A DNA stretch of 64,000 nt from Alphaproteobacteria bacterium (GCA_020049775.1 JAGVLO010000013.1:37256-101255), one strand, 5' to 3'. Positions 5,392 to 35,217 are shown, counted from the stretch's first letter. Notes: generated from the letters alone by a model not told the origin. Translations and numbers: made by a program.

Positions 5392-5435
5392 AGAGAAAAG
5401 CGCAGCCGCCTGTCCCGGTTGGGACAGACGACTGC
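5392..5435 (-). terminator. Rho-independent terminator of cassette A1
   Basis: Minus-sense RNA is GCAGUCGUCUGUCCC-AACC-GGGACAGGCGGCUGC followed by GCUUUUCUCUCCC. The stem is 15 bp with two G-U wobbles that would be C-A mismatches on the plus strand. Confidence 0.8.
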
Positions 5436-5453
5436 TAGGTTGGTGTTGACTGA

Positions 5454-5822
5454 TCAATCGAGGTACGAGCCCGGGGCCTTCTTGAGGGGCACCGGGTTCG
5501 GCTTGTCCTCGACCTTCGTCGGGGCCGACTTGTTGGTCGGGGTCTTCTTACCCTTGCTGCTCATGGCGGCGAAGGTGAAGGTGACCACGATCACGATCAG
5601 CACCCACACCCAGAAGCGCTTCAGCAGCGGCTTCTTGGTGGTGGTGGGCTTGTCGGCCGGCTTGTTGTCGCCGCCGATGATCGTGATGATCGTGCCCTTG
5701 ACGAAGCTGGTCCCGTCGGGAACCATGACCTCGTCGCCGACCGCCTTGCTGCTCTCGACCTCCATCTCGATGATGGACTTGTCGGTCAGCTTGCGGACGA
5801 TCGCGTTCTTCTTGCTCGACAT
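5454..5822 (-). CDS. Orphan single-pass membrane protein A1 (122 aa), GC3-saturated
   Basis: ATG at 5822 lies 8 nt after SD GGAGG (5831-5835). 119 of 122 sense codons end in G/C by direct reading. Sequence: MSSKKNAIVRKLTDKSIIEMEVESS...FWVWVLIVIVVTFTFAAM, then a Lys/Pro-rich tail. N-terminus is homologous to A2. Confidence 0.8.
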   Translation of the reverse strand: MSSKKNAIVRKLTDKSIIEMEVESSKAVGDEVMVPDGTSFVKGTIITIIGGDNKPADKPTTTKKPLLKRFWVWVLIVIVVTFTFAAMSSKGKKTPTNKSAPTKVEDKPNPVPLKKAPGSYLD

Positions 5823-5980
5823 CGGAAACACCTCCGAAAAAGGCAGGTAAACCTTGCCTACTGGATACAGATCGGGCGAAATTGCCAGACCTGTGTAGGA
5901 AAGGCACTGCCTTCGTCTGATAGTCTCGCCGCACCTAGTGTATAGGGGGGAGAACAAATCACCCTTATTTTAGCACGGAA
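5823..5980 (-). promoter_or_regulatory. Conserved structured 5' leader, family A copy 1 (possible riboregulator plus promoter -10 TAAAAT)
   Basis: Aligns with 6472-6632 over about 150 nt. The long-range helix CGAAGGCAG (5907-5915) / CTGCCTTTTTCG (5835-5846) covaries with copy 2. An alternative hairpin GGCAAGGTTTACCTGCC followed by TTTTT lies just before the SD. Confidence 0.65.
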
Positions 5981-6078
5981 ATCTTTAGAAATTGTGACTG
6001 ATTTGTTAACTTTTATACGGTCATATGACAGCTATATGAATATAATGCGCTGTTTTTTATGATTTTATATGGGAAACG

Positions 6079-6123
6079 GAAAAAAGCGCAGCCATCTGTC
6101 CCGGTTAGGGGACAGACGGCCGC
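6079..6123 (-). terminator. Rho-independent terminator of cassette A2
   Basis: Minus-sense RNA is GCGGCCGUCUGUCCC-CUAACC-GGGACAGAUGGCUGC followed by GCUUUUUUCC. Differences from the A1 stem keep pairing through G-U or Watson-Crick exchange. Confidence 0.8.
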
Positions 6124-6150
6124 TAGGTTAGCGGTGTTGTTGTTCGGCGA

Positions 6151-6471
6151 TCACTTGAGGATCACGCCGAGCAGCATGAACACCCACGTCACGAGGATGA
6201 ACCCCGCGATGTAGTGGTACCAGCGCCACTTGGAGAAGTAGCCCTTGACGGACGCCCACTTCTCGCTGAGCTTGCTGGTGATGTTGCTGCCGTTGTCCGT
6301 CGTGCCGTCGTTGACGATCGCGAAGACCTTGACCTTCGTGAAGCGCCCCTCCTCGCCGTTGACGGGGAGGAAGTGGTCGTCGCCCGCCTTCAGGTTGGAG
6401 GGGACCTCCATCTCCTTCAGCGTGCCGTCGTCCATCTTCACGACCGCGGACACCATCTTGTTGCTCGACAT
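6151..6471 (-). CDS. Orphan tail-anchored membrane protein A2 (106 aa), GC3-saturated
   Basis: ATG at 6471 lies 8 nt after SD GGGAGG (6480-6485). Every one of the 106 sense codons ends in G/C. Sequence: MSSNKMVSAVVKMDDGTLKEMEVPSN...YIAGFILVTWVFMLLGVILK. Confidence 0.8.
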   Translation of the reverse strand: MSSNKMVSAVVKMDDGTLKEMEVPSNLKAGDDHFLPVNGEEGRFTKVKVFAIVNDGTTDNGSNITSKLSEKWASVKGYFSKWRWYHYIAGFILVTWVFMLLGVILK

Positions 6472-6632
6472 CGGAAACACCTCCCGATTAAGGCCTGGAT
6501 ACACCTTGCCTACAGAAACAGATCGGGCGAAATTGCCTGACCTGTGTAGGAAAGGCACCTGCCTTAATCTGATAGTCTCGCCGCACCTAGTGTATAGGGG
6601 GGAGAACAAATCACCCTAATTTTATCACGGGA
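6472..6632 (-). promoter_or_regulatory. Conserved structured 5' leader, family A copy 2
   Basis: Near-identical to 5823-5980 in its 5' two thirds. Perfect 9-bp long-range complement GATTAAGGC (6561-6569) / GCCTTAATC (6486-6494) abuts the SD. Confidence 0.65.
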
Positions 6633-6713
6633 AGCGTAAGCGTATTGTTAAGTATCTGTTAAAATTTATCTATTTTAGAGGGCAGCTGGCCAAACCAACC
6701 AATTGTTATTGCT

Positions 6714-7652
6714 TTATAAAAATATTCCAAAGAAGCAAAACAACAAGACATGCAGCACAAAAAACGCCCGCAATGCGCGGCCAACATGGGCATGCGTTAT
6801 CTTGGCTGTACCTGCGCCAATCCAGCCTTCATGTACGTAAGCCGACGACTGTCCACCGAGGCATAGACTCAATACGGACGCAGCGGCAAGGATAGATAAA
6901 TCTTGCGGGGATTCGCCAAATACACCGTTTTTTACCTGCTCTGCCGCGCTGTAAACATTGGCGGAAGGAAGCACGATTGCCACCACCAGCCACAGCCCCG
7001 CCGCAATACGCGAGGGAATATAATGCAATATATGGTGCAACTTGCGGCTGGCGCGTCCGAACGCCTCTTCGCTTTCCGTAGGCCGCACGAGTGTTTCCTG
7101 CAGCAGGTAAACGGTTTTGCTCAAACACAGGCCCGGCAAGCCAAACAGCACATAAAATAAAACCGGCGCTACAATTTTTTCTGAAAAATGCACCGCCAGC
7201 ATTTCCACGCCCGCACGCCCAAGCCCAAATTCATCAAGCAGCGGATGATGCTTCCACACTGTATATTCCAACGACTGGCGTGCAGCAGAGATATTGCCGT
7301 CCTTCAATCCACGGCGCAAGCCATTCACCGTATCCCATGTCGAACGGAAAGGCAGCAGGCAAGCCAGCAAACTCAGCTCGAGTATGGGCAGCGCCCCCGA
7401 CAATGCAAGCGTCAACAGCGAACCGACAATCAGCGCCGCCAATAATGCAAAAAGGGCGAATAGCCAGCCACGCGTTTCACGCTCCTGAACACTGCGGTTT
7501 TCACGGTTAAGTTTGCGCTCAAAAAGCCGCACCCACTGTGTAGGTATGCGGCCAATGCGCACTAGCCCCAGCGCCGCATAAAAGCGCCGTGGTCCGCCTA
7601 AGAAAGCGTTGAGCGCCAGTGCGCCCAGTATCAGCAGTATCCGATCACCCAT
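6714..7652 (-). CDS. cobD: CobD/CbiB-family membrane protein (adenosylcobinamide-phosphate synthase-like)
   Basis: Polytopic membrane protein with CobD/CbiB-like layout (N-terminal LNAFLGGP region, conserved charged loops). Start set to MGDRILL (7652) rather than ORF-track 7778. No other cob genes are nearby. Confidence 0.55.
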   Translation of the reverse strand: MGDRILLILGALALNAFLGGPRRFYAALGLVRIGRIPTQWVRLFERKLNRENRSVQERETRGWLFALFALLAALIVGSLLTLALSGALPILELSLLACLLPFRSTWDTVNGLRRGLKDGNISAARQSLEYTVWKHHPLLDEFGLGRAGVEMLAVHFSEKIVAPVLFYVLFGLPGLCLSKTVYLLQETLVRPTESEEAFGRASRKLHHILHYIPSRIAAGLWLVVAIVLPSANVYSAAEQVKNGVFGESPQDLSILAAASVLSLCLGGQSSAYVHEGWIGAGTAKITHAHVGRALRAFFVLHVLLFCFFGIFL

Positions 7653-7753
7653 GTCTTTGTACCGCTTTTGCCATATACCATTTTTCCTAAATTTCAGATG
7701 GCCCTTATTTCCGGATGATGCCACTATAACAGCCCGTAACCAATTGTCACATA

Positions 7754-8635
7754 GTGATGAACAACCCCTCACAGACACTCAGTGATCGCCTGTTGGCGCT
7801 TCCCTCCCTAAAGACCGTCATCAATGCGTTCGGGCTGGATGCGCGTAAATCGCTGGGGCAGCATTTCCTGCTCGATACACGCATCACCGACAAAATCGCC
7901 CGCTATGCCGGAGATCTGAGGGATTTCAACGTTATCGAAATCGGCCCTGGCCCGGGCGGATTGACACGCTCGCTGCTCGCTGCCGGATGCAGGCATCTGG
8001 TGGTGGTGGAAAAAGACGACCGCTGCCTCGCGGCACTAGCGCAAATAAAAGAAATCGCCGGCGACAGGATGGAAATAATCCACGGCGATGCCATGGAGTT
8101 TGACCCTGTAGCATCGGTCCCCGCGCCGCGCAAAATTATAGCCAACCTGCCCTATAATGTCGGCACACCACTTCTGGTGCGGTGGCTGGGCATGGTCGCA
8201 GAGCAGGGCAATAGCGCGTTCGATTCACTAACGCTGATGTTCCAGAAAGAAGTGGCCGAGCGCATTGTCGCCGAGCCAGGCAACAAGGATTTCGGCAGGC
8301 TGGCGGTTCTCTGCCAGTGGCTGTGCGAATGCCGCTATGATTTTGAGCTGCCGCCCGGCGCTTTCTCGCCGCCACCCAAGGTCAGCTCGGCGGTGGTGAC
8401 ACTAAGCCCAAGAAAAGAAAAACTGGTGGATGTATCGCAGGACGCGCTGGAGATGGTCATGGCCAAGGCCTTCGGCCAGCGGCGCAAAATGCTGCGCTCG
8501 GCACTTAAAGGGCTGGCTGTACCAGCTGACGTACTTCTGGAAAAATCGGGCATCGACGGCAGCAAGCGTGCCGAACAGCTGGACGTTATGACGCTGTGCA
8601 AGCTAGCGCAGGTGTATGAAAAAATAAGGCGCTAA
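7754..8635 (+). CDS. rsmA: 16S rRNA (adenine1518/1519-N6)-dimethyltransferase
   Basis: KSLGQHFL motif, SAM-binding VIEIGPGPGGLT, and NLPYNV motif. Confidence 0.9.
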   Translation: MMNNPSQTLSDRLLALPSLKTVINAFGLDARKSLGQHFLLDTRITDKIARYAGDLRDFNVIEIGPGPGGLTRSLLAAGCRHLVVVEKDDRCLAALAQIKEIAGDRMEIIHGDAMEFDPVASVPAPRKIIANLPYNVGTPLLVRWLGMVAEQGNSAFDSLTLMFQKEVAERIVAEPGNKDFGRLAVLCQWLCECRYDFELPPGAFSPPPKVSSAVVTLSPRKEKLVDVSQDALEMVMAKAFGQRRKMLRSALKGLAVPADVLLEKSGIDGSKRAEQLDVMTLCKLAQVYEKIRR

Positions 8636-9285
8636 AGGCTATCCACAAACTCGGCCATGCCTGATTGACGCACGCGCTTTAATCGCTCGGCCTTGAGGAT
8701 GGTATCGATTTTTTCCAGCGTTTCGTCGAGGTTCTGGTTAATCAGCACATAGTCATATTCCTGCCAGTGGCTGATTTCATTGAACGCCTTGCTCATGCGT
8801 TTTTTGACCACTTCGTCGCTGTCCTGCGCACGCGCTTTCAGGCGGCGCTCCAGCTCTGTCATGGACGGCGGCAGAATAAACACACTGACTAAATCATCGC
8901 GGCTTTTGGAGGCCAGCTGGCGCGTTCCCTGCCAATCAATGTCAAACAGCACATCCACCCCGCGCTCGATATGCTCACGCACAAAACCAGCGGGAGTGCC
9001 GTAATTATATTCAAACACCTGCGCATATTCGAGCATCTCGCCTTTTTTCACCATGTCCTTATATTGCGCATCATTGACGAAAAAATAATCGCGGCCATGC
9101 TCTTCACCCGGGCGGGGAGGGCGCGTGGTCACCGATACAGACATCACAAGCGTTTCGTGCGCTTCGGCATTATTGTATTGCTCGCGCAGCTGGCGCGACA
9201 ATGTCGTCTTGCCTGCGCCCGAAGGCGAGGAAAGAATAAACATCAACCCGCGGCGCTTAAGCTCTACTTTCTGCTGAAGCGACAT
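8632..9285 (-). CDS. gmk: Guanylate kinase
   Basis: P-loop SSPSGAGKTT and the TTRPPRPGE motif. Convergent 4-nt overlap with rsmA. Confidence 0.9.
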   Translation of the reverse strand: MSLQQKVELKRRGLMFILSSPSGAGKTTLSRQLREQYNNAEAHETLVMSVSVTTRPPRPGEEHGRDYFFVNDAQYKDMVKKGEMLEYAQVFEYNYGTPAGFVREHIERGVDVLFDIDWQGTRQLASKSRDDLVSVFILPPSMTELERRLKARAQDSDEVVKKRMSKAFNEISHWQEYDYVLINQNLDETLEKIDTILKAERLKRVRQSGMAEFVDSL

Positions 9286-9298
9286 GTGTTTCTCTTCC

Positions 9299-9916
9299 TT
9301 ATTTCAGCGCTTCCGTGAGCTGGCGCAGCAATTCTTTTTCGCCCGCGTCATAAGCCACGGCATTGATGAATACGCCGTCCTTGCCCATCAGATACACATA
9401 GCCGGAGTGATCCACCATGTAATCATTGGCAGTAGTAGCGCCGGTCGCCTTGGCGTAATAGGCGCGGTACACGCCCGCAGCCTGCTTTACCTGCTCCAGC
9501 GTTCCAGTCAGGCCGATAATGCGCTTGTCAAAATTGGCGAGGTATTTGGCGATCACCTCCGGCGTGTCGCGCTCGGGGTCCACCGAAATGAATATAGGGG
9601 CGACCTGTGCGGCCTTTGCCTCATCGATCTGCGACAGCAGTTTGGTATATGCCGCCATGGTGGTCGGACACATGTCGGGGCAATGGGTGAAGCCAAAAAA
9701 CACCATCATGACGCGCCCACGGAAATCCGTATCGCTCACGGCTTTGCCTGTAGCATCGGTCAGCGCAAAACTGCCACCAATCTGTGCCGTAGGCTCTTCT
9801 TTACCGAGAAAAGCAGCCAGCTGTGCGCGCTGACTGGTGCGATCGCCGGTCAGTAAAATCATAATGCTGGTAAATACCAGCAGAAGGATAGTCAGTAATA
9901 TAAAAAATTTCTTCAT
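9299..9916 (-). CDS. SCO1/SenC copper chaperone (thioredoxin fold)
   Basis: N-terminal TM anchor. Motifs FGFTHCPDMCPTT and DHSGYVYL. Confidence 0.85.
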   Translation of the reverse strand: MKKFFILLTILLLVFTSIMILLTGDRTSQRAQLAAFLGKEEPTAQIGGSFALTDATGKAVSDTDFRGRVMMVFFGFTHCPDMCPTTMAAYTKLLSQIDEAKAAQVAPIFISVDPERDTPEVIAKYLANFDKRIIGLTGTLEQVKQAAGVYRAYYAKATGATTANDYMVDHSGYVYLMGKDGVFINAVAYDAGEKELLRQLTEALK

Positions 9917-10088
9917 ATATCAGTATCTTGTTTTCTTTTTTACTTGAATATTAGTGGCTGAATAAAGGTTAAATTACAGAGGAAATAATGGTTAATTTTA
10001 GAAGAGTCTCGGCTTAGTTATTGTATTTATTTGAATTTTAACGTCATTTGGGTTAACATATTACTGTAAGCAGGTAAGGGTTTTAGCG

Positions 10089-21308: not shown

Positions 21309-22700
21309 TTAAGGCTCTGTGGTTACCTCTTTCATACCGAAATAGCGCTTAAAAGGCCCATTTTCCCAACTATTGGGGCGTGGCCCCAGTGGAAAATGAT
21401 AAACCATTGTTTTGTATGCAGGTATTTTTGCAACAACCACTGTGTCTTTGCCTTCGGCTTTAGCTGCTATGGTTTGCTCCATCTGTACAACTGAAATTTT
21501 TCTTTGTTCCGGCGCATTTTGATAGCTGTACCACAAATCATTAATGCCGCGGGCTATGGCGGGCGTAAGGGATACATATGTCATAAAGGCAAAAAGCGTT
21601 AGCAGCAGTATATTTGAAAATTTGACGCCGATGAATCTGGACAACGGATATCGTGCTGCCAGCCAGCTCACAAAGAAAAGCATTGATATAAAACATAAAA
21701 TACTGGGAAGCAGGATAGTCCTTGGCGATATCGCCCATCGAGCCCTGTATCCGTAAATAACCAAGAAAAATAACATGAAGCTTATCGCCAGCACGGTCAG
21801 CACATACAGCATAAACCGTCCATTGGTTTTGCAATATTTTACCGTGGGTGTTGCAACAAAATACGCACGCATGAATGCATACACGGTAATTTCAGCAAGG
21901 AATGGCAAAAACATAGCTTTATATGTTTGCATAGTGACAAGAGTTATATGCAGCATATCTGTGTGGCCACCAAGTCTTGCATAGTTACCGGGAGCAGCAA
22001 TATTGATTAGTAAACCTATAATATTGCCAATTAAGACCGCGCACATACGCCCGTAAAATAATTCGCGCCGCATATCTGTATTGGTAGCAAGATAAATGCC
22101 TATGCCGCCTATCATAACGAGGGGTTGTAGCTCATTATAACCCGCCACAAACGTAAAATAGGCTATTAAGCCGGCCCACAGATATCGCTCTTTTTTTACA
22201 TCACGCCCCTGGGTGCCAAATATAAAATATAGTCCCAAAAAAGCTAATGATGCGGGGACAACATACAAAATATTAAACGTATCGACGTAAAAGGCTTCTT
22301 CTTTGATATCTATGGGCAAAACAAGCATAAAAAAAGCGATGTCCGCCAATACGAATATCTTTGCCGTGTTACCCAAAGCTTTGTGTAAAAACAAAGCGAA
22401 TGAGATAAAGAACAGCGCTATGCTGGCAACAATAAATAAATTGGCGTGAAACGGAAATAAGAAAGACCCGTTTACCAGACTAAGGGTTAGGAGGCATGAG
22501 AATCTTCCAGAAAATGTCTGGTATGCAAAAACTAAGGTTCCGATATAGCCTTTGGTGTTGGTCCAGAAAGCATTATCCCAGTCATCCACTTGCGGGAAGG
22601 AGTAATACCCCAGAAAGGCATGAAGCAATAATATGGCTAAGCCCAACGCACAAACGCAAACAGCTAGCCTATTAGGGAGCTGACTAAATTTTTGTTGCAT
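21309..22700 (-). CDS. AT-rich polytopic membrane protein (463 aa), possible GT-C-type glycosyltransferase
   Basis: About 12 hydrophobic segments plus a roughly 70-aa C-terminal soluble tail. Codon usage is much more AT-rich than the flanking mdh and rho. Function is inferred from architecture only. Confidence 0.6.
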   Translation of the reverse strand: MQQKFSQLPNRLAVCVCALGLAILLLHAFLGYYSFPQVDDWDNAFWTNTKGYIGTLVFAYQTFSGRFSCLLTLSLVNGSFLFPFHANLFIVASIALFFISFALFLHKALGNTAKIFVLADIAFFMLVLPIDIKEEAFYVDTFNILYVVPASLAFLGLYFIFGTQGRDVKKERYLWAGLIAYFTFVAGYNELQPLVMIGGIGIYLATNTDMRRELFYGRMCAVLIGNIIGLLINIAAPGNYARLGGHTDMLHITLVTMQTYKAMFLPFLAEITVYAFMRAYFVATPTVKYCKTNGRFMLYVLTVLAISFMLFFLVIYGYRARWAISPRTILLPSILCFISMLFFVSWLAARYPLSRFIGVKFSNILLLTLFAFMTYVSLTPAIARGINDLWYSYQNAPEQRKISVVQMEQTIAAKAEGKDTVVVAKIPAYKTMVYHFPLGPRPNSWENGPFKRYFGMKEVTTEP

Positions 22701-22784
22701 TGCATAGCTCTGGAAATTTGAGGTTCAAGAGATGAATTAATACGCGAAAAATTAAGATGCGATTAATACTGGAATAAAATTAGC

Positions 22785-24152
22785 TCAGGAATTCATCTTA
22801 TCAAAGAACTCATCATTGGTCTTGGTTTCACCTAATTTCTCGAGCAGGAACTCGATACCGTCCATCGGACCCATGGGCGCAAGGATTTTGCGCATAACCC
22901 ACATCTTGGTAAGGGTTGCCTTATCGACCAGCAAGTCTTCCTTGCGCGTGCCGGACTTGGTGATGTCCATAGCCGGGTAGGTGCGCTTGTCGGCAAGCTT
23001 GCGGTCAAGGATGATTTCAGAGTTACCCGTACCTTTGAATTCTTCAAAGATCACTTCGTCCATGCGCGAACCTGTTTCGATAAGCGCCGTTGAGATGATG
23101 GTCAGGCTACCGCCATTTTCGATATTACGCGCCGCACCGAAGAAACGCTTAGGGCGCTGCAGGGCATTGGCATCCACACCGCCGGTGAGTACCTTGCCGG
23201 AGCTTGGGACTACCGTGTTATACGCACGCGCTAAGCGTGTAATTGAATCAAGCAGGATGACCACGTCTTTTTTATGTTCCACCAGTTTTTTAGCTTTTTC
23301 AATTACCATTTCCGCCAGCTGCACGTGACGGGTAGCCGGTTCATCAAAGGTAGAGCTGACAACTTCGCCCTTCACGGTGCGTTGCATGTCGGTCACTTCT
23401 TCAGGGCGCTCGTCAATCAGCAGCACGATGAGGAATGCGCCCGGATGATTGGCGGTGATGGAATGGGCGATATTCTGCAAAAATACGGTTTTACCGGTGC
23501 GCGGCGGCGCAACGATGAGTGCGCGCTGGCCAAAACCAAGCGGGGTGACAATATCAGCCACACGCATGGATAAATCTTTGCTTTGCTGCTGTTGCTGCCG
23601 ACGCCTGTGGGCATCTCTTGCGTTAGGCATGGCCGCAGGATTGACGGGTTTCTCTTCTGGCGGCTCCACGGTTTCGCTCATCTTGGAGCCGGTACCGGTA
23701 GGTTCGATTTCGAGTTTGATACGGCGCTCTGGATAGAGCGGCACGAGGTTGTCGAAATTGATGCGGTGGCGCACAGCCTCCGGATCATCATAGTTAATGG
23801 TGTTTACTTTCAGCAGGGCAAAATAGCGCTCTCCCTCTTTGGGTGCGCGGATTTCACCGGCTACGGTGTCACCCGTGCGCAAGCCGAAACGACGTATCTG
23901 GCTGGGGGAAACATAAATATCGTCGGGTCCGGCTAGATAATTGGCCAGCGGAGAACGCATAAAACCAAACCCGTCCTGTAATACCTCAATCACCCCTTTG
24001 CCGGTAATGGCTTCACCTTTTTCCGCCTGTTTCTTGAGAATGGCGAAAATCATTTCCTGTTTGAGCATAGTGCTGGCATTTTCAATTTCAGCAGTTTCGG
24101 CTAGCGCCAGCAGATCATCAGGGGTTTTTAGCTTAAGGTCTTGTAATTTCAT
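22785..24152 (-). CDS. rho: Transcription termination factor Rho (with extended inter-domain linker)
   Basis: N-terminal RNA-binding domain ([17 protein letters not shown]), Walker A APPRTGKT, and the remaining Rho motifs. About 36 extra residues relative to E. coli Rho lie between the domains. Confidence 0.95.
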
Positions 24153-24343
24153 AAATAATAACGTGATTAGTTGGAGGGAATGAAAAAATGGATGGAAGGC
24201 GGATGGTTCAAGAACTGGATATTTGAGAAGGAAAGGCAGCTTTGCTGCGCAAGGACAAATCTAAGAGTAGAAGATGCAAGACATGTCCGATGCCCCAGAA
24301 TGTAAACAAAGCGCACACAAACGTCAATCTTTTTATTAACGAC

Positions 24344-24790
24344 TTAAAAGGGTTTGAACACCACTGTAAAGACAATAAGCACCATGAGAATGGCTGGTAC
24401 TTCATTGAAAATACGAAAGAAACGCTCGGATTGTGGTCGCTCGTCTCGCTCAAATTTGCGACGGTAACGCGCCATCAGCGCATGAGCAGTCTGCATCAGT
24501 ACCAAAAGCCCCAGCTTGCCGTGCAGCCATGCACCGTTCTGCTGTACATCGAAGGCGTTAATGGTAAAAGCCAGCCACAGGCCAAAAATCCACGACACTA
24601 TCATGGCCGGGTTGATGATGATACGAAGCAACCGCCGCTCCATGACTTTGAATAACTCTGATGCCTCACTGCCCACGGCCACCTGCGAGTGATAAACATA
24701 CAGGCGCGGTAAATATAGCATACCCGCCATCCATGACATAACGGCAATCAGATGCAGTGCTTTGAGCCAGTGATAAGTTTCATCAAACAT
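24344..24790 (-). CDS. hemJ: Protoporphyrinogen IX oxidase HemJ
   Basis: WLKALHLIAVMSWMAGMLYLPRLYVYH signature and 4-TM layout. Lies next to hemH and hemE. Confidence 0.8.
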   Translation of the reverse strand: MFDETYHWLKALHLIAVMSWMAGMLYLPRLYVYHSQVAVGSEASELFKVMERRLLRIIINPAMIVSWIFGLWLAFTINAFDVQQNGAWLHGKLGLLVLMQTAHALMARYRRKFERDERPQSERFFRIFNEVPAILMVLIVFTVVFKPF

Positions 24791-24809
24791 TGATTATCCT
24801 TTATACAGG

Positions 24810-25856
24810 TTATTCATTTACCACACAGGGGCATTCCGAAAAACTGCGCGGGCAGAAGCGTGTCTTGCCAGCAGGACAAATAGTGTCCGTGCGGTCAATG
24901 CCCCAGCATAAATTTGCCAGTGCATCGATAAAAAAACCTTCTGTGCATAGCGCTGGCACACGCCAGTAAGACGGTAGTTTTTTTTCCGCAGCCAGCTCAC
25001 GGTAATCAATATCAAGCTCCACCAGAGTTTCCGAATGCTCCGATACAAAAGCAATAGGCACAACAACAACAGGCACAGCATCTTTGCCCGCACGGTCAAT
25101 TTCATCCTCGGTGTAAGGGCCTATCCATTTCAGGCGGCCCACGCGGCTCTGGTAGCAGACCACATAATCAAGCTCGTCAATCGCCATCAAATCAACAATG
25201 GCTTTGGCCGTTTTTTCTATCTGCATCTGGTAAGGATCGCCTTTTTCAATTACTTTTTCCGGCAGACCGTGAGCAGAAAACAACACGCGCGGTTTTTGCG
25301 ATTCCGATGCTTTCCAATAGATTTCTTTAATCAGCTTTACATGCGATGCAATGAAGCTGTTATCCGTTGGATAACAGCAAATGGATGTTGTGGGGGTAGA
25401 CAGCCCTTCTTTGCGGCATGCTGCTTGCCAGTCATTGAATGAAGAGCCAGTCGTAGTAGTTGAAAACTGCGGATAAAGCGGAAGCAAAATAACATGGTCT
25501 GGTTCGTAGGCTTTTACTTTTTTTACTACAACACTGCTCATGGGATGCCAATATCGCATGGAAAAAAATACTTTGTATTCACCCTTGGATGAAATTTTGG
25601 CCGCAAGTAATTTTTGCAACGCTTCCGCCTGCGCATTGGTTTGTTCAAAAATAGGGGATTTGCCACCAAGCTTCTGATAAATGCCAATGGCTTTTTTTGC
25701 CCGTGTACTGGAAATTAATTTAGCCAGTAAATAGCGAAATGGGTTGGGAAGGCTGATAATTGCAGGGTCGTTGAATAAATTAAATAAAAACGGCTTTACT
25801 GCTTTTAGGCTATCCGGCCCGCCGAGATTGAATAATACAACCGCTGTCCTTGCCAT
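24810..25856 (-). CDS. hemH: Ferrochelatase (with C-terminal Cys cluster)
   Basis: VVLFNLGGP and SAHGLP motifs. The C-terminal CPAGKTRFCPRSFSECPC resembles the Cys-rich tail seen in [2Fe-2S] ferrochelatases. Start set at MARTAVV, 1 nt after the hemE stop. Confidence 0.9.
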   Translation of the reverse strand: MARTAVVLFNLGGPDSLKAVKPFLFNLFNDPAIISLPNPFRYLLAKLISSTRAKKAIGIYQKLGGKSPIFEQTNAQAEALQKLLAAKISSKGEYKVFFSMRYWHPMSSVVVKKVKAYEPDHVILLPLYPQFSTTTTGSSFNDWQAACRKEGLSTPTTSICCYPTDNSFIASHVKLIKEIYWKASESQKPRVLFSAHGLPEKVIEKGDPYQMQIEKTAKAIVDLMAIDELDYVVCYQSRVGRLKWIGPYTEDEIDRAGKDAVPVVVVPIAFVSEHSETLVELDIDYRELAAEKKLPSYWRVPALCTEGFFIDALANLCWGIDRTDTICPAGKTRFCPRSFSECPCVVNE

Positions 25857-25857
25857 A

Positions 25858-26895
25858 CTACGCGTAGCTCCTGATGAGTTCACTGAGCGCCAACACGTTA
25901 TCCGGCGGTGTTTCTGGTATCACGCCATGGCCTAGGTTGAAAATAAAACGCTTATCTCCAAATATGGATAATATACGCTTTGCCTCTTCCAGCATTGCAT
26001 TTTTGTCATAAGCCAGAAGCAGCTGGTCCAAATTTCCCTGCACTACTGTGTGTGGCTGCAAATGTTCCTTTGCCCATGACAGCGTAACAGAACCATCGAT
26101 ACTTACCGCGTCAACGCCTGTTTGTTTTACATAGTCAGTAATCTTACTTCCGCTCATGCGCGGAAATCCGATGACAGGAATAGATGGATACGCTTTTTTA
26201 ATGGCAGAAACTATTTTTTTTGTCGGTACAATAGACCAGTCGGAAAATTGTTTTTCTGATAATACACCGGCCCATGAGTCAAAAATCTGTATCACTTCTG
26301 CTCCCGCTTCTATCTGCGCGATAGCATGGCTAGATACCGCATCAGTCAGCATATCCACCAGCTTAATGAAAAATGCTGGATCTTTGTAAATCATAGTACG
26401 TGGTAATTGAAAATCCCTGCTACCCTTGCCTTCAATCATGTAGCAAGCCAGCGTCCACGGCGCACCGGCAAAACCTATCAGTGTTGTTTCAGCGGGTAAT
26501 GCTTTTCGTGTAAGACGTAACGCCTCATATACGGGAGAAAGATGCGAAGCAAAATTCTGGCGGCTTAGTAATTCCAGATCTTTGCTATTTTGTACCGGTT
26601 TTAGTATTGGCCCTTTTCCCTCCTCAAAACGAACATCCGCTCCTAGCGCATGCGGTATTACCAAAATGTCAGAAAATATAATCGCTGCGTCCATATTAAA
26701 ACGGCGTATAGGCTGCAACGTAACTTCACAAGCCTTATCCGGTGTATAACAAAAATCGAGAAAATTCTTCGCCTTTTTTCGTAATTCTTTATATTCCGGC
26801 AAATACCTTCCCGCCTGACGCATAAGCCAGAAGGGAGGTCTTCCTGAAAAGGAGGGAGTAAACGCAGACAGGAAATATTTTCCAGAATTATTCAT
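25858..26895 (-). CDS. hemE: Uroporphyrinogen decarboxylase
   Basis: PPFWLMRQAGRYLPEY signature and full-length similarity pattern. Confidence 0.95.
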   Translation of the reverse strand: MNNSGKYFLSAFTPSFSGRPPFWLMRQAGRYLPEYKELRKKAKNFLDFCYTPDKACEVTLQPIRRFNMDAAIIFSDILVIPHALGADVRFEEGKGPILKPVQNSKDLELLSRQNFASHLSPVYEALRLTRKALPAETTLIGFAGAPWTLACYMIEGKGSRDFQLPRTMIYKDPAFFIKLVDMLTDAVSSHAIAQIEAGAEVIQIFDSWAGVLSEKQFSDWSIVPTKKIVSAIKKAYPSIPVIGFPRMSGSKITDYVKQTGVDAVSIDGSVTLSWAKEHLQPHTVVQGNLDQLLLAYDKNAMLEEAKRILSIFGDKRFIFNLGHGVIPETPPDNVLALSELIRSYA

Positions 26896-28909: not shown

Positions 28910-28911
28910 GC

Positions 28912-30200: not shown

Positions 30201-30231
30201 TTTCTGACTTCTTAAAAATTACGAAACGCAT

Positions 30232-30264
30232 AAAAAAGGGCCCCCGATTTTGGGGGCCCTTTCT
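30232..30264. terminator. Bidirectional hairpin terminator between dnaQ and the ompA-like gene
   Basis: AAAAAA-GGGCCCCC-GATTTT-GGGGGCCC-TTTCT. The perfect 8-bp GC stem is flanked by an A-run and a T-run. Confidence 0.85.
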
Positions 30265-30282
30265 ATTCGTAGCTGTTGAAGC

Positions 30283-30867: not shown

Positions 30868-31111
30868 TATCCTTTTTCTTTAGTTAAAATAGGCGGTGTC
30901 GGAAGTAAGAATCTGAATTCGATAACTAATTCAAAGCCACCCCAAACGCAATGCATATTTTGTTATACCATGCACGGCAGGAGATTAGGGATACGGTCTT
31001 AAAAATCAATTAATTATGAGCATCCTTGAGACCGGATAGGGGTGGTTTGTGCATAAAAGTAGATGAGTGATGCCAGATTGCCACAGCTGGCGTCGCCAAT
31101 CTTTACTAAGG

Positions 31112-31579
31112 TTAAGAAGCGGCCGCTGCCTGTGCTTTGGCGCGATTCTGCAGGTAAAGTGCGTGAAAATCAATAGGATCAAGCATCAAAGGCGGGAATC
31201 CTCCATCGCGTGTGACGTCTGCAATTACGCGCCTAGCGAAGGGGAACAGCACGAACGGACAGTCGATAAGTATAATGGGTTCGATGCGGTCTTCCGGAAT
31301 ATTGCTGAGCTGGAAAATACCACAATAGGCAAGGTCCACCAGGAAGAGCGAATTGTTTTCTACTACGGCGCGTGTAGCGATATGCAGTGTCATTTCATAT
31401 ACGCCGTCCTGAAGTTTTTGTGCTTTTATATCCACATTTACATCAATGGTTGGCTTCAGGTTGAAGTTCATCAGGCTTTGCGGCGCATGCGGATTTTCAA
31501 AGGAGAGGTCTTTGATATATTGGCCTTTGACAATAAAGCTCTGGGCGTTGCCTGATCCTTGCTGCTCGTCTGCGCTCAT
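31112..31579 (-). CDS. secB: Protein-export chaperone SecB
   Basis: Matches the SecB pattern (YIKDLSFENP...LLFPFARRVIADVTRDGGFPPLML). Confidence 0.9.
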   Translation of the reverse strand: MSADEQQGSGNAQSFIVKGQYIKDLSFENPHAPQSLMNFNLKPTIDVNVDIKAQKLQDGVYEMTLHIATRAVVENNSLFLVDLAYCGIFQLSNIPEDRIEPIILIDCPFVLFPFARRVIADVTRDGGFPPLMLDPIDFHALYLQNRAKAQAAAAS

Positions 31580-31707
31580 GTATTCTGTCCTTCACGAAAA
31601 TTTTATTTGTGTTAAGTTGCCTGCAGACCTTATACATAAAAAACCTGCATGGTCACCAGTTAATTTTGTTATTCACCGCTCTATAGAAACAATAAGATTA
31701 TAATTAT

Positions 31708-32400
31708 ATGTCCGATGGTTCATCCTACGCCGATCTTGTAATTCTAGGCCTGCTTGCCGTTTTTATATTGCTGCGCCTGCGCAGTATTCTGGGCGACAAG
31801 GTAGGCAATGACGGCGCTGATTATTTCAAGAAAATGCTGCCGCCTGCCGTTAAACAACAGTCGCAAGCTCAGGAAGAGCCTATTGTCCAGTTGGAAGAGA
31901 AATCTTTCAAAATTAAATTCAAGGATGAAGACCCTTATCTCTCATCGCTTAAAGACAGGCAGGTTGCCGACGTTCTGGAGTCAATTAAAGAAAAGGACCT
32001 GCAATTCACCGCCACTTCATTCCTGCATGGCGCAAAGCTTGCGTATGAAATGGTGTTTGATGCCTTTGCCAAGGGCGACCGTAAAACATTGGGTATGCTG
32101 CTTTCGGAAACAACTTTCGCCGCTTTCAGTAACGAGCTGGATATCCGCGAATCATCAGAAAATAAAACAGAGACCACTCTCGTTTCTGTTGTGCCTAAGG
32201 ACATCGTTGCCGCAAGCATGAATGGAAGCATGGCGCGGCTTACCGTGAAATTTGACAGCGAACATATTACCGTGGTGCGCGATGCCAAGGGCGGAATTGT
32301 GGAAGGCGATCCTTCCGAATTACACATAGTGGATGACCAATGGATATTCGAGCGCGATATTACTAGCAAGAATCCAAACTGGAAGATTATCGAAACATGA
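31708..32400 (+). CDS. Tim44-like domain protein
   Basis: N-terminal TM anchor and C-terminal Tim44-like fold pattern (WIFERDITSKNPNWKI), common in alphaproteobacteria next to secB. Confidence 0.75.
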   Translation: MSDGSSYADLVILGLLAVFILLRLRSILGDKVGNDGADYFKKMLPPAVKQQSQAQEEPIVQLEEKSFKIKFKDEDPYLSSLKDRQVADVLESIKEKDLQFTATSFLHGAKLAYEMVFDAFAKGDRKTLGMLLSETTFAAFSNELDIRESSENKTETTLVSVVPKDIVAASMNGSMARLTVKFDSEHITVVRDAKGGIVEGDPSELHIVDDQWIFERDITSKNPNWKIIET

Positions 32401-33506
32401 TGCATTCGCTGAAACGGCTTTCTGCCGTACTGGTTCTTGTGGCGTGCAGCGGTTGCAGCCTTTTCGTTAAAGCAGATAAATTCGGGTCACGGCTCATTAC
32501 CTATTCCGAACTTCCGGGCTGGAATATCGATCATCACGGCGAAGCGCTCCAGACATTCAAGGAAAGCTGTCCGATACTGGCAAGGAAGGCGCGCGGTGCT
32601 TCCACAGGCAGCGGACTGGAAGTAAACGAAGAGGTCTGGCGGTCACTATGCAGTGAAGCTTCGCATATTTCATCCGACGACCACGAGGCTGCCCGCCTGT
32701 TTTTCGAGCGCCGCTTTGCCCCGTACCGCGTCAATAATAATGGCAAGGAGCTGGGCCTGTTCACCGGTTATTATGAACCCACCCTTTACGGTTCGCTCAA
32801 GCGTATCGGTAATTATAAATACCCGCTCTATGCGCCGCCTGCCGGCCTGAAAGAGAAAAAGCCCTATTACAGCCATGCTGAAATCAACCGCGGGGCATTG
32901 GCCAACCGTAGGCTAGAGCTGGTGTGGGTGGATGATCCGGTGATGATATTTTTCCTGCACATACAGGGCAGCGGCCGTATTATTCTGAGTAACGGCACGG
33001 AGCGGCTGATAGGCTATGCCGACCAGAACGGCCATGGCTATGTGTCGCTGGGCAAGGTTATGGGCGAGGAAGGCCTGCTGCCCAAAGACCAGATAAATTT
33101 CTTCACCCTGCGCCAGTGGCTATATGAAAATCCGGACCGCGCTTTTGCCATGATGGAAAAAAATCCCTCTTATGTATTTTTTAAATGGCTAGACAAAAAA
33201 AGGCCGGTTGGTGCAATCGGCGCAGAACTGACGGCCCAGCGTTCGCTGGCCGTAGAAAGCCGCCATATTCCTTACGGCTTGCCGCTTTACCTGCAGACCG
33301 AGCTTCCGGCCACCCCTGGCAACGCACCCACGCCGTTTAACCGTGTGATGATTGCGCAGGACACGGGCGGCGCTATACGCGGACCTGTGCGCGGCGACAT
33401 CTTTTTCGGCCCCGGCCAGCAAGCGGAATATCTTGCCGGCTACATGAAAAACAGGGGTTTCTACAACCTTCTGGTGCCGCGCGAGATTGCCTACCAGCTG
33501 CAATGA
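32397..33506 (+). CDS. mltA: Membrane-bound lytic murein transglycosylase A
   Basis: Lipoprotein-type signal (LVACSGC), MltA and 3D domain motifs (FTGYYEP, DTGGAIRG...DIFFG). Confidence 0.85.
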   Translation: MMHSLKRLSAVLVLVACSGCSLFVKADKFGSRLITYSELPGWNIDHHGEALQTFKESCPILARKARGASTGSGLEVNEEVWRSLCSEASHISSDDHEAARLFFERRFAPYRVNNNGKELGLFTGYYEPTLYGSLKRIGNYKYPLYAPPAGLKEKKPYYSHAEINRGALANRRLELVWVDDPVMIFFLHIQGSGRIILSNGTERLIGYADQNGHGYVSLGKVMGEEGLLPKDQINFFTLRQWLYENPDRAFAMMEKNPSYVFFKWLDKKRPVGAIGAELTAQRSLAVESRHIPYGLPLYLQTELPATPGNAPTPFNRVMIAQDTGGAIRGPVRGDIFFGPGQQAEYLAGYMKNRGFYNLLVPREIAYQLQ

Positions 33507-34081
33507 AGCGTACGCTGACACCTGAGGAAAAAGAACTATGGCGCTATGTCACGCGCCATGACAAGCCGCTCGATAGCGCTACATTAGAGGCAATGGAAGA
33601 GCCTGCTGAGAAAACGGTAAAAACAAAAGAAAAACCTGTGGTAAAAAAATGGCGGCCAGGGATGCACTCGGGCATGCATGCCGCGGCCGCACCTGCCGCT
33701 ACGACTAAAAAAGAAAATGCCCTTTCACAGGGGTTGTATGCAGGCATTGACCGCAACACGGCGGAGCGTTTCCGCAAGGGCGATTACCCGATAAACGCCA
33801 CACTTGATTTGCATGGCATGAACCGTGAAAAAGCACACGCCATGTTGATGGCGTTCCTGAATATATTTTATGCCCAAGACGCGCGCTGCCTGCTGGTCAT
33901 TACCGGCAAAGGCAAGAAGGACGTGCAGGGCGGGGATAAAATATCCGGCGTGTTGCGTGAATCGCTGCCGCAATGGCTGAGTGTGCCGGACGTAAAAAAA
34001 ATGATACTGGCCTTTGATGTGGCTAAGCCAAAGCATGGCGGCAGTGGCGCATTTTATATTTTACTACGGCGCAAACGCTAA
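33503..34081 (+). CDS. Smr-domain protein
   Basis: C-terminal Smr domain (LDLHGM...CLLVITGKG...GVLR). Confidence 0.8.
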   Translation: MKRTLTPEEKELWRYVTRHDKPLDSATLEAMEEPAEKTVKTKEKPVVKKWRPGMHSGMHAAAAPAATTKKENALSQGLYAGIDRNTAERFRKGDYPINATLDLHGMNREKAHAMLMAFLNIFYAQDARCLLVITGKGKKDVQGGDKISGVLRESLPQWLSVPDVKKMILAFDVAKPKHGGSGAFYILLRRKR

Positions 34082-34091
34082 AATATTTTCC

Positions 34092-34135
34092 CTAAAAACA
34101 CAAAACTCTCCGCCTCGGAGAGGGGAGAGTTTTGT
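34092..34135 (-). terminator. Rho-independent terminator of cassette B1
   Basis: Minus-sense RNA is CAAAACUCUCCCCUC-UCC-GAGG(C)GGAGAGUUUUG followed by UGUUUUUAGGG. It is preceded by the conserved box CAACCAGGCCTTAAATGGCCC (34135-34158). Confidence 0.8.
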
Positions 34136-34165
34136 GGGCCATTTAAGGCCTGGTTGCTTCTGGTT

Positions 34166-34519
34166 TTAGCCGGGGTACACCACGGTGGACGCGTTCTCCG
34201 TGACCAACATGAACTCCACGCCCGACAGCAGCTCGATCGTCTCGATCGTCTCGATCAGGTCGAGCGGCATGGCGGCCATCAGCATCTCGGTGATGAGGCT
34301 GCTGACGGTGAACGTGGTGATGCGGGTACCCTCGTTGAGCAGCTCGACCACGCGGGGGGTACCCGGGGTGAGCGCCAGCAGGGGCATCTCGCGCGGCAAC
34401 AGGTTGTTGCCGCCCACCTCCAACAGCACGGGGCTGTGGCCCTCGTTCGTGAGGGTGATGGTGTTGTTCTCGTCGTTCGCGGACACGTTGATGCAGCCGG
34501 CCAGAATGAAGCGCGCCAT
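34166..34519 (-). CDS. Orphan soluble protein B1 (117 aa), GC3-saturated
   Basis: ATG at 34519 lies 5 nt after SD AGGAGA (34525-34530). 114 of 117 sense codons end in G/C. Sequence: MARFILAGCINVSANDENNTITLTNEGHSPVLLEV...MPLDLIETIETIELL... Homologous to B2. Confidence 0.8.
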   Translation of the reverse strand: MARFILAGCINVSANDENNTITLTNEGHSPVLLEVGGNNLLPREMPLLALTPGTPRVVELLNEGTRITTFTVSSLITEMLMAAMPLDLIETIETIELLSGVEFMLVTENASTVVYPG

Positions 34520-34613
34520 GGATTTCTCCTAATATACGGCGCCAAACGGGACACTCGCAGGGAACTGTTCCCTGTGAGCCTGTACCTCTCTTGTGAGGGG
34601 TAAAGTGACAAGA
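34520..34613 (-). promoter_or_regulatory. Structured 5' leader, family B copy 1
   Basis: Scaffold shared with copy 2: TCTTG..CTTTACC..CAGGCT-[21-nt hairpin]-AGTG..AGGAGAAAtCC. The hairpin CACAGGGAACAGTTCCCTGCG lies at 34556-34576. TATAAT lies just upstream (34616-34621 on the minus sense). Confidence 0.6.
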
Positions 34614-34693
34614 CTTATTATAAATTAACCAAAGGCAGTAAAAAACAGGATTTTTATGACAATATGTTGAATATGACGTTTCAACTATATGAT

Positions 34694-34735
34694 ATAAAAC
34701 ACAAAACTCCCCGCCTCGGAGAGGGGAGAGTTTTG
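34694..34735 (-). terminator. Rho-independent terminator of cassette B2
   Basis: Same hairpin as B1 with one A-U to G-U change (GGGGAG arm), followed by UGUUUUAUAUC. The conserved 3' box is at 34736-34759. Confidence 0.8.
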
Positions 34736-34765
34736 CGGACCATTTAAGGCCTGGTTGTCACGGTG

Positions 34766-35122
34766 TTAGTTGTCGTCGGTCGGCACGAGCTTGAGCGTCT
34801 GGTCGCCTTCCATCACGAACGTGTCCGCGATGCCCACGCTCACCAGTTCGGCGATGAGGCCGAGGCTGTCGAGCGGGATCTCGTCCACGGTCACGACGGG
34901 GAGCGTCATGAACTGGCCGACGACGATCCGGCACTCGGTCATGCTGCCCTTCGGCAACGCGACCGCCTGCCCGGGGAACAGGGTGAAGCTGTCCGAGGCC
35001 ACCTCCTCGCGGGGGTTTCCCGCGATGACCAGCTTCGTCGCTTTGCCCTCGTTCTTGAACGCGACCAGCTCGCCGTTCTCCGACACACTGACCACCACAC
35101 CACTGACGTTGAGGTTCTGCAC
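34766..35122 (-). CDS. Orphan soluble protein B2 (118 aa), GC3-rich; GTG start
   Basis: GTG at 35122 lies 6 nt after SD AGGAGA (35129-35134), at the same place as the B1 start. The composition shift begins here. Sequence: VQNLNVSGVVVSVSENGELVAFKNEGKATKLVIAG...IPLDSLGLIAELVSV... The ORF-track ATG at 35224 lies inside the leader. Confidence 0.7.
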   Translation of the reverse strand: MQNLNVSGVVVSVSENGELVAFKNEGKATKLVIAGNPREEVASDSFTLFPGQAVALPKGSMTECRIVVGQFMTLPVVTVDEIPLDSLGLIAELVSVGIADTFVMEGDQTLKLVPTDDN

Positions 35123-35217
35123 TGGTTTTCTCCTATGTGCAGGCCACACGATGCACTCGACAAGGAACATCCCCATCGAGCCTGGCTTTACAATACCCTG
35201 AGGTAAAGAAAGCAAGA
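35123..35217 (-). promoter_or_regulatory. Structured 5' leader, family B copy 2
   Basis: The hairpin CGATGGGGATGTTCCTTGTCG at 35158-35178 sits between the conserved CAGGCT and AGTG. Two fully compensatory pair changes relative to copy 1. Confidence 0.6.

Follow-up and report, generated by a model that had tools for sequence, protein, structure and literature searches.

Candidate orphan small-protein cassettes with G/C-locked wobble positions at two intergenic sites of a small alphaproteobacterium-like clade

Two intergenic loci hold four predicted single-gene units

We analyzed a 64-kb window of an Alphaproteobacteria bacterium assembly (GCA_020049775.1, JAGVLO010000013.1:37256-101255), in which positions are counted from the first nucleotide, together with related contigs recovered by synteny or protein match. 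Two loci about 28 kb apart, with housekeeping genes between them, each carry two units built around a short open reading frame (ORF): A1 and A2 at 5392 to 6713 and B1 and B2 at 34093 to 35322, all four on the minus strand. Judged by their architecture, these are predicted to be autonomous, single-gene transcription units. Nearly all codons of their ORFs end in G or C, and the units and their relatives appear to form a lineage-restricted class of orphan small-protein cassettes at two fixed intergenic sites in a small, alphaproteobacterium-like clade.

At the A locus, Pfam annotation places a patatin gene (plus strand, 4265-5371) facing A1, A2, and cobD, all on the minus strand. At the B locus, smr (plus strand, 33503-34081) faces B1, B2, and an ORF of 251 amino acids (aa), likewise all on the minus strand. 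Two same-strand units per locus, each pair in a convergent gap, is what the original prediction for this DNA had described. Around the A locus, Pfam identifies histidine kinase, short-chain dehydrogenase/reductase, patatin, CobD, KsgA, and Gmk genes, and around the B locus, Smr, MltA, and response regulator genes. The host is alphaproteobacterium-like, judging from neighboring Tim44-like and SecB genes, the presence of RpoH, and best PDB matches of Mdh to alphaproteobacterial entries. No integrase or transposase gene flanks either locus, in agreement with the prediction. The sole integrase gene of the window (56954-58171) lies 21 kb from B, and the only repeats found are the units' own leaders and 3′ boxes.

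Each unit comprises, from 5′ to 3′, an AT-rich promoter spacer, a long structured leader, a strong Shine-Dalgarno (SD) sequence, an ORF, a CA-rich linker, and a terminator. This shared layout had been recognized earlier, along with the G/C-saturated third positions and an ORF range (105 to 122 aa) essentially the same as the 106 to 122 aa measured here. The strong SD and long ORF of each unit argue for coding status, as does the modeled beta domain of A1 described below, and length differences between orthologues, in the cases seen, amount to whole codons (118 versus 119 aa and 106 versus 105 aa). The parts are listed below in coordinate order. GC3 is the G+C fraction at third codon positions, z scores compare folding with that of shuffled sequences, and R1 and R2 are covariance models of the B and A leaders, respectively.

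5392-5453, minus strand: A1 3′ box; CA-rich linker after the stop codon, 15-bp terminator hairpin (5402-5435), and T-run; dG -31.3, z -4.8
5454-5822, minus strand: A1 ORF; 122 aa, GC3 0.97; predicted four-strand beta N terminus, transmembrane (TM) helix at residues 66 to 90, and Lys/Pro-rich tail
5823-5966, minus strand: A1 leader; structured 5′ untranslated region (UTR), z -4.6; SD GGAGG in a small hairpin before the ATG; R2, 183 bits
5967-6079, minus strand: A1 putative promoter spacer; AT-rich; extended -10 element TGCTAAAAT read by eye
6080-6150, minus strand: A2 3′ box; linker, terminator hairpin (6088-6123), and T-run; z -4.6
6151-6471, minus strand: A2 ORF; 106 aa, GC3 0.99; predicted N-terminal beta domain and TM helix at the extreme C terminus (tail-anchored)
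6472-6618, minus strand: A2 leader; near-identical to the A1 leader; z -4.2; R2, 165 bits
6619-6713, minus strand: A2 putative promoter spacer; from the cobD stop codon to the leader; 78% identity with the relative L005
34093-34165, minus strand: B1 3′ box; conserved small hairpin (34137-34150), then 16-bp terminator hairpin (34100-34135) and T-run; z -6.2
34166-34519, minus strand: B1 ORF; 117 aa, GC3 0.97; predicted to be soluble, with a beta-rich N-terminal half
34520-34619, minus strand: B1 leader; two hairpins, the second of which covaries; SD GGAG in the GGAGAAAUCC hairpin; R1, 90 bits
34620-34692, minus strand: B1 putative promoter spacer; AT-rich; -10 TATAAT; 81% identity with the relative L002
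34693-34765, minus strand: B2 3′ box; small hairpin (34738-34751) and terminator (34700-34737); z -4.5
34766-35122, minus strand: B2 ORF; 118 aa, GTG start, GC3 0.93; distant paralogue of B1 (29% identity)
35123-35222, minus strand: B2 leader; leader family common to B1; R1, 103 bits
35223-35322, minus strand: B2 putative promoter spacer; GC 0.375; promoter-like TTTTCA-16-TATATT at 35257-35230

The A1 and A2 3′ boxes are 87% identical, and those of B1 and B2 are 95% identical. Spacer GC content ranges from 0.375 to 0.457 across the units; the whole A1-A2 spacer (5823-6150), which takes in the A1 promoter stretch, has a GC content of 0.46.

Wobble positions of the cassette ORFs are almost invariably G or C

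GC3 was 0.97 in A1, 0.99 in A2, 0.97 in B1, and 0.93 in B2, versus 0.27 to 0.67 in 19 host genes (0.52 to 0.67 in housekeeping genes outside islands and 0.27 to 0.44 in a classical island described below). When the 64 kb were scanned in three phases with a 150-nt sliding window, GC3 values of ≥0.88 were found only in the four ORFs and in a 183-nt coiled-coil stretch of xseA. The excess in the four ORFs is far beyond chance. It recurs in 11 of 11 cassette ORFs from five assemblies, with values of 0.91 to 0.99.

The other two codon positions are host-like, and neither is raised (GC1, 0.46 to 0.68, and GC2, 0.30 to 0.41, over the 11 ORFs; 0.46 to 0.64 and 0.36 to 0.41, respectively, in the four ORFs of the window). 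The cassette proteins are rich in Lys and poor in Arg (19 K and 2 R in A1), the reverse of high-GC proteomes. All 92 Ala, Pro, and Thr codons in the cassettes end in G or C, and AT-only trinucleotides number 0 to 3 per cassette ORF, versus 11.9 per 100 nt in host genes. The rule in every cassette ORF is S (G or C) at the wobble position. Synonyms ending in C and in G occur at similar frequencies (Ala, 10/17; Pro, 12/13; Thr, 23/17; Val, 25/28), so the rule is not one of a single optimal codon per amino acid. Host translational codon preference was rejected as its source, because the host favors the opposite codons: for Glu, the cassettes use GAG 29 times and GAA twice, whereas the host tricarboxylic acid cycle, ompA-like, secB, and rho-like genes favor GAA 2- to 5-fold.

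Both sites are occupied in related assemblies

The cobD/patatin and 251-aa gene/smr gaps were occupied in every related assembly recovered, with one to two or more units at A and two or three at B. In contigs L001 (JGI 3300072121) and L002 (JGI 3300072958), three units lie between a 252-aa gene and smr: a B2-type ORF of 119 aa, an unrelated ORF of 92 aa that we call C, and a B1-type ORF of 117 aa. The Logan contig L004 carries C and then B1, and another, L009, carries a B2-position allele of 110 aa. The B locus of OPKC_6Np holds units of 114, 92, and 109 aa, and its A locus holds a 105-aa ORF. The A locus in relatives was reached with cobD as the anchor; the cobD/patatin gap contains one A-type unit of 127 aa in L005 and, in L006, one 105-aa unit followed by the start of a second leader at the contig break. 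Across the window and its relatives, cassette ORFs span 92 to 127 aa. Unit numbers at A and B vary independently.

Both loci were seen in JGI 3300072121 (L001 and L006), in JGI 3300072958 (L002 and L005), and in OPKC_6Np, where they come from one sample and apparently from one 81.9-kb contig. Beyond the clade, the next-best CobD homologue is just 57 to 58% identical. Because both gaps are occupied and GC3 is 0.91 to 0.99 in all recovered cassettes, the two sites appear to be long established in this small clade, which has been poorly sampled. Recent insertion of the loci does not accord with this occupancy throughout the clade.

Searches farther afield returned little. When the GTDB species genomes were searched with a 20-mer from the A leader, the one match lay in Longispora (L007), an actinobacterium, and was treated as chance; by our estimate, about one random match is expected for a 20-mer in a collection of that size. 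The B 3′-box pattern matched nothing in the JGI metagenome collection. As a separate observation, a 2.6-kb metagenome contig with 41% GC (L008, 2473-2643) carries a 39%-identical homologue of the 251-aa gene; the sequence downstream of this homologue is AT-rich and contains a terminator-like hairpin, and the 170 nt present hold no GC3-locked ORF.

Cargo alleles appear to be exchanged independently of the host background

Between the window and L002, host genes differ by 0.8 to 2.3 synonymous substitutions per site (dS) and 0.04 to 0.12 nonsynonymous substitutions per site (dN). The corresponding values are 0.10 and 0.10 for B1 and 0.37 and 0.25 for B2, and B1 is 90.6% identical at the nucleotide level, compared with 77 to 85% for flanking host genes. 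The low dS of B1 is a consequence of the wobble rule, since third-position differences between B1 orthologues are mostly C-to-G or G-to-C transversions (8 of 11 and 10 of 13). Because the rule lowers dS, dN/dS ratios near or above 1 are not readable as positive selection. The rule persists across alleles that are just 43 to 49% identical, which suggests that it is actively maintained and is not a decaying relic.

B1 orthologues are 83 to 85% identical to the window protein in L002 and L004. CobD of OPKC_6Np and CobD of L005 are equally close to that of the window (88%), but identity falls to 43% for the B1-position protein of OPKC_6Np. Alleles at the B2 position have pairwise identities of 67%, 43%, and 49%. 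The contrast is more telling for L002 and L009, whose host proteins are 96% identical (dS, 0.08 to 0.20) and whose B2-position alleles are 49% identical (dN, 0.48). This change far exceeds what time allows, so the B2-position allele appears to have been replaced by recombination from a divergent pool.

Two further comparisons bear on the cargo. L005 and L006 have 100% identical cobD genes and A units (4490-4873 and 6230-6806, respectively) with the same N-terminal halves and different C-terminal halves; this mosaic could reflect genuine recombination or the collapse of two units across repeated leaders during assembly. L001 and L002 are 100% identical in all three genes compared (the 252-aa gene, B1, and PolyA polymerase), and a 13-bp deletion (TCCAAGCTGGTCA) in L001 frameshifts the first B unit (8400-8800, versus 8836-9240 in L002), with its 119-aa ORF, apparently as a natural loss-of-function variant. 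The pattern suggests that the cargo is dispensable, hypervariable, and exchanged independently of the host background, while the leader/terminator shell is kept.

Each site has its own leader and terminator family

Each site appears to have its own conserved leader/terminator family, A-type or B-type, standing ahead of unrelated or very divergent ORFs. The A leaders (~145 nt) are near-identical in A1 and A2, though the proteins share only 33% identity, and both fold better than shuffled sequences (z -4.6 and -4.2); their mutual similarity is too high to show covariation. The B leaders (~100 nt) fold more weakly (z -1.9 and -1.4). Seven B-locus leaders of the B1, B2, and C types align and share a common hairpin, with compensatory changes in 4 of 11 pairs; this one family stands upstream of all three ORF types, including the unrelated C. 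In the B 3′ box, 98.6% of alignment cells are paired, versus 41 to 59% in slid controls, with little covariation. Every unit closes with a perfect hairpin of 15 to 16 bp followed by a T-run (folding z, -4.5 to -6.2).

The search for further units with leader models that had been proposed alongside the original prediction covered 136 kb (the window and the fetched loci), in which R1 and R2 matched cassette-associated copies only. Rfam 15 at its gathering threshold returned tRNA alone for the whole window, and E-value scans of the two loci gave chance-level matches, with E values of at least 1.7. Elements resembling -10 boxes are TGCTAAAAT or TGATAAAAT in the A units, TATAAT in B1, and TATATT, 16 nt from TTTTCA, in B2. 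In a strict sigma-70 scan, -35/-10 pairs were lacking from both strands of the A locus and from the plus strand of the B locus, so the A1 promoter is called putative here.

Some smaller features are common to the A and B shells. The SD of every unit is enclosed by a short hairpin, the 3′ arm of which (UCC or CC) stops 0 to 2 nt ahead of the start codon (5823-5840, 6472-6489, 34520-34535, and 35123-35140; for example, CGGAGGUGUUUCCG-AUG and GGAGAAAUCC-AUG). Downstream of the stop codon, A and B units alike have a CA-rich stretch (5436-5453, 6124-6150, 34151-34165, and 34752-34765), as do relatives. The motif AACACCAAC occurs after the stop codon in A1, in L005, and in L002 unit 1, and the terminator apices are alike (TCCCCTCaCCGGGaCGG versus TCCCCTCTCCGAGGCGG). 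The likeness of motif and apex is marginal (P value of 0.01 to 0.05, uncorrected) and may hint at a common origin of the A and B 3′ modules.

Cassette proteins are orphans of predicted membrane and soluble types

AlphaFold2 (AF2) predicts for the A-type proteins a four-strand beta domain of ~50 residues (predicted local distance difference test [pLDDT] score of ~85) followed by a linker and one TM helix. In the A1 model, which drew on two sequences, the beta domain has a pLDDT of ~85 and the helix spans residues 66 to 90; in A2 and the L006 protein, the helix lies at the extreme C terminus. The B proteins are without a TM helix and have a beta-rich N-terminal half. This agrees with the earlier division into one membrane and one soluble locus.

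Against 5.8 billion proteins, the A proteins matched only themselves (A1 is P0001); this word-indexed profile search missed the L005 and L006 proteins. A B profile matched five clusters in the same set, and full HMMER over 1.84 billion representatives gave six matches, four from the same clade and two weak ones to immunoglobulin (Ig)-like-domain repeats. From their sequences, we take the latter two to be bacterial repeat proteins with Ig- or cadherin-like domains. The B profile also weakly matches the de novo designed Ig-like domains 8bl3, 8bl6, and 7skp of the PDB over residues ~8 to 62 (E value of 2.6e-5 summed over two repeats, ~13 bits each), with the common pattern 'v.l.N.g..pv.v.vG....l.l.PGe.v.v'. 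The B proteins are likely small beta-sandwiches.

The AF2 model of B1 was poor (pLDDT, 49.7), and Foldseek found no structural neighbor of the A1 model in PDB or BFVD at an E value of ≤0.001. The C-type proteins had no match in profile comparisons or family searches. Pfam, NCBIfam, PADLOC, and PHROGs gave nothing significant for the cassette proteins except one PHROG match of A1, annotated Sie-like; it was rejected as compositional, as it covers only the TM and Lys-rich segment and is absent from A2. No cassette relatives were found in IMG/VR, INPHARED, or PLSDB (viral, phage, and plasmid sequences) by protein or DNA search.

A tentative interpretation and its alternatives

The reading that we favor, tentatively and in the knowledge that it may well be wrong, is that the cassettes are autonomous small-protein units, swappable by recombination and expressed from hardened mRNAs, and that selection at the nucleic acid level keeps their wobble-GC rule in place. 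Ordinary homologous recombination, acting between the repeated leader/terminator flanks and the flanking host genes with no dedicated recombinase, would add, remove, and exchange units. The wobble rule would be held by selection on the nucleic acid, with G or C at each third base barring three consecutive A/U residues and thereby removing AU-rich single-stranded targets of RNase E. This enzyme prefers single-stranded AU-rich sites and unpaired 5′ ends, also in the alphaproteobacterium R. sphaeroides (PMC6238624). The structured 5′ and 3′ ends would protect the mRNA further, and the cargo would be robustly expressed. A dispensable, fast-diversifying cargo would fit conflict functions such as exclusion, immunity, or the binding of phage or competitor factors.

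Selection of this kind would have wider interest. In bacterial genes, synonymous sites are usually under less constraint than any other part; in the cassettes, which are otherwise fast-evolving orphan genes, no part is more constrained, and the constraint runs against host codon preference. To our knowledge, a wobble-position constraint of this kind has not been described previously. If selection on mRNA or DNA is indeed the cause, the cassettes would be a natural experiment in how far synonymous recoding tunes the stability or insulation of expression, and in the modular plugging of new small proteins into a ready-made regulatory shell without a recombinase. The native alleles, two leader families, and several unrelated cargos provide a test set at hand.

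Several points weigh against the hardened-mRNA reading. The transcription starts, mRNA half-lives, and protein products of the units are all predictions made from DNA. The rule is stricter than avoidance of A/U runs: hardening does not strictly need G or C at a wobble position already flanked by G/C, yet 92 of 92 Ala, Pro, and Thr codons end in G or C. Overall duplex or RNA stability, or dependence on tRNAs with G34 or C34, remain open as other readings of the same constraint. A conflict role for the cargo is deduced from its evolutionary pattern, and the class may be larger or differently distributed than the two sites seen in the window and fetched loci. Finally, the leaders are 86 to 93% conserved between species, versus 88 to 94% for ordinary intergenic regions of the same genome pair. 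Exceptional leader conservation was rejected on these grounds, and the leaders appear to be conserved like normal regulatory DNA.

The alternative that survives best, unlikely as we consider it, is GC-biased gene conversion at two recombination hot spots, in which frequent exchange of alleles would confine mismatches to the polymorphic ORFs and GC-biased repair would then take the weakly selected wobble positions to G/C neutrally. It would suit alleles that are exchanged or replaced independently of host divergence, as well as the L005/L006 mosaic with its shared N-terminal and differing C-terminal halves, and recombining bacterial genes do tend to higher GC3 (PMC4450053). Conversion is blind to codon position, however, and should push replacement sites to GC too; GC1 and GC2 are not raised, and the excess of K over R stays despite the fast-evolving proteins (dN, 0.1 to 0.8). 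The AT-rich spacers in the same loci also remain at 37 to 46% GC. Effect sizes reported for GC-biased conversion in bacteria are far smaller than the shift seen in the cassettes, where GC3 stands at 0.97 to 0.99 against a background of 0.6.

We give a somewhat smaller chance to the idea that the wobble-GC lock is a natural form of expression insulation. An NNS-only dialect, with no A/U-ending codons or A/U stretches and with structured ends, could keep the mRNAs stable and translatable when bulk mRNAs or the tRNAs for A/U-ending codons are attacked, as in phage takeover or by ribosome-dependent mRNA interferases or anticodon nucleases. On this view, the conserved shell, with cargo that can be swapped, would serve as a dedicated chassis for emergency or conflict proteins, and the A- and B-type shells would be two versions of it.

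The original prediction had raised a different possibility, that membrane-anchored A and soluble B make up one system between them, each present as two diverged alleles. In such a system, B proteins would dock on A proteins at the membrane. What stands of it is the common design: A and B share their unit architecture and wobble-GC regime. The predicted structures, a cytoplasm-facing beta domain with a TM helix for A and a resemblance to a small beta-sandwich binding module for B, would also suit such an arrangement. The check on co-occurrence suggested with the prediction found both loci in every related lineage in which both gaps were visible, but this carries little weight because it is plain synteny among close relatives. 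A direct functional link between A and B did not emerge. The proteins are unrelated by hhalign profile-profile comparison (probability of 0.4%), local alignment against shuffles found no similarity between A and B leaders or promoters and, in the 3′ regions, only the marginal likeness of motif and apex noted above, and transcript complementarity did not rise above that of shuffles, so the anchor-and-partner arrangement is unsupported by protein, leader, or RNA comparisons. The loci differ in unit number, a third, unrelated ORF is present at the B locus, the B2-type frameshift in one population has no matching A-locus change evident, and 28 kb with housekeeping genes separate the two. We regard the partnership as doubtful; A and B look like two independent families of one cassette class and are not demonstrated partners.

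Less probable again are type I toxin-antitoxin-like modules, in which the long structured 5′ UTR would control a membrane toxin (A) in tandem copies, as in ldr, hok, and ibs. Type I loci are often tandem intergenic repeats, and their toxins are typically under 60 aa. The tandem units, the near-identical long structured leaders, the SD inside a hairpin, and the hydrophobic helix at the end of the A proteins recall such loci. The cassette ORFs, at 92 to 127 aa, are longer, however, and the B and C proteins are not hydrophobic; the sigma-70 scan found no promoter-like site for an antisense RNA on either strand of the A locus, and no Rfam antitoxin or toxin-leader family matched.

Least likely of all is the recent acquisition of foreign genes, moron-like or from a high-GC donor, that keep donor codon usage: autonomous promoter-ORF-terminator units with a composition unlike their surroundings match the definition of a moron (PMC3594210) and the proteins are orphans, but amino acid content is not high-GC-like (GC1 and GC2 are host-like, and A1 has 19 K to 2 R), protein and DNA searches turned up no relatives in phages, plasmids, or viral contigs, the neighbors are housekeeping genes, both sites are filled throughout the clade, the rule persists over alleles 43 to 49% identical, and the window's one classical island is AT-rich and lies by a tRNA-Tyr gene and an integrase gene.

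Comparison with known systems

A phage moron is an independent transcription unit in a prophage, with an atypical composition and a dispensable cargo that is often conflict related or unassigned (PMC3594210). The cassettes resemble morons as single small genes with their own predicted promoter and terminator, in their atypical composition, and in their apparent dispensability. They differ in lying among cobD, patatin, smr, and other housekeeping genes instead of in a prophage, in having no phage homologues, and in forming tandem arrays with family-specific conserved leaders; their compositional shift is also confined to the wobble position and appears to be actively maintained.

Integron cassettes are likewise short, unrelated, same-strand ORFs that vary in number by strain, include many orphans, and are each followed by a structured repeat. 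Here, no IntI integrase or attI site lies nearby, as judged by Pfam annotation of the flanking genes, and only one to three units occupy fixed chromosomal gaps. Integron cassettes are usually promoterless, whereas these units carry their own -10-like element and leader, and their 3′ repeats, perfect hairpins with a T-run, look more like terminators than like attC sites, which are imperfect inverted repeats with a GTTRRRY core.

The ldr, hok/sok, and ibs/sib loci are intergenic tandem repeats of ~0.5 to 0.6 kb; each encodes a small protein, in some cases one that inserts into the membrane, behind a long, structured, and highly conserved 5′ UTR in which the SD is sequestered. Tandem intergenic arrangement, a long structured 5′ UTR, an SD in a hairpin, and some membrane proteins are shared features. 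The cassette proteins, however, are 2 to 3 times larger and most are predicted to be soluble, the ORFs diverge while the UTRs are conserved, and no antisense RNA was evident from the promoter scan of the loci or from Rfam. We know of no wobble-GC locking in ldr, hok/sok, or ibs/sib loci.

With ompA-type 5′ stem-loop stabilizers and RNase E avoidance, the cassettes share a structured 5′ UTR, a strong 3′ hairpin, and a lack of AU-rich single-stranded stretches, all of them known to favor long mRNA life; the known cases are single housekeeping mRNAs with ordinary codon usage, and we are aware of no natural whole ORF that has been synonymously purged of A/U-ending codons. Synthetic codon-optimized cassettes are similarly modular, with an identical regulatory shell, interchangeable coding sequences, and uniform recoding that ignores host usage. 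The present units are natural, and diverged versions occur at the same sites in five independent assemblies (metagenomes and SRA runs).

Features of two other variable systems were looked for. For a diversity-generating retroelement, no repeat of ORF sequence was found anywhere in the window and no reverse transcriptase gene among the flanking genes. For an orphan immunity or polymorphic-toxin array, the flanks held no toxin-type gene (CdiA, Rhs, or type VI secretion system effector), and Pfam, NCBIfam, and PADLOC gave no matches. We assign the cassettes to none of morons, integron cassettes, and type I repeats and regard them as autonomous accessory gene cassettes set apart by their wobble-position constraint.

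Other features of the window

The segment at 56693 to 61460 contains a tRNA-Tyr gene (56693-56778), the phage-type integrase gene (56954-58171), and three ORFs with no Pfam match and GC3 values of 0.27 to 0.44, after which amtB begins (61474). This AT-rich segment appears to be a classical integrative island and is, in composition, the reverse of the cassettes. Another low-GC stretch, at 21309 to 26895, includes a gene for a DUF6056 membrane protein with a GC3 of 0.43 and is syntenic in relatives; GC3 is 0.44 and 0.40 in its core heme genes, which we took to be hemH and hemE from synteny with L001, versus ~0.6 in their neighbors.

An OmpR-type response regulator and a HAMP histidine kinase are paired within 2 to 3 kb of each cassette locus (1290-3420 and 36131-38231). 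The two kinases are 25% identical, generic paralogues, and the presence of such pairs near both loci is probably coincidence. Finally, the intergenic region between secB and the ompA-like gene (30868-31111) is 94% identical to that of L002 despite saturated synonymous sites in the flanking genes, and may contain a conserved 5′ UTR or a small RNA.

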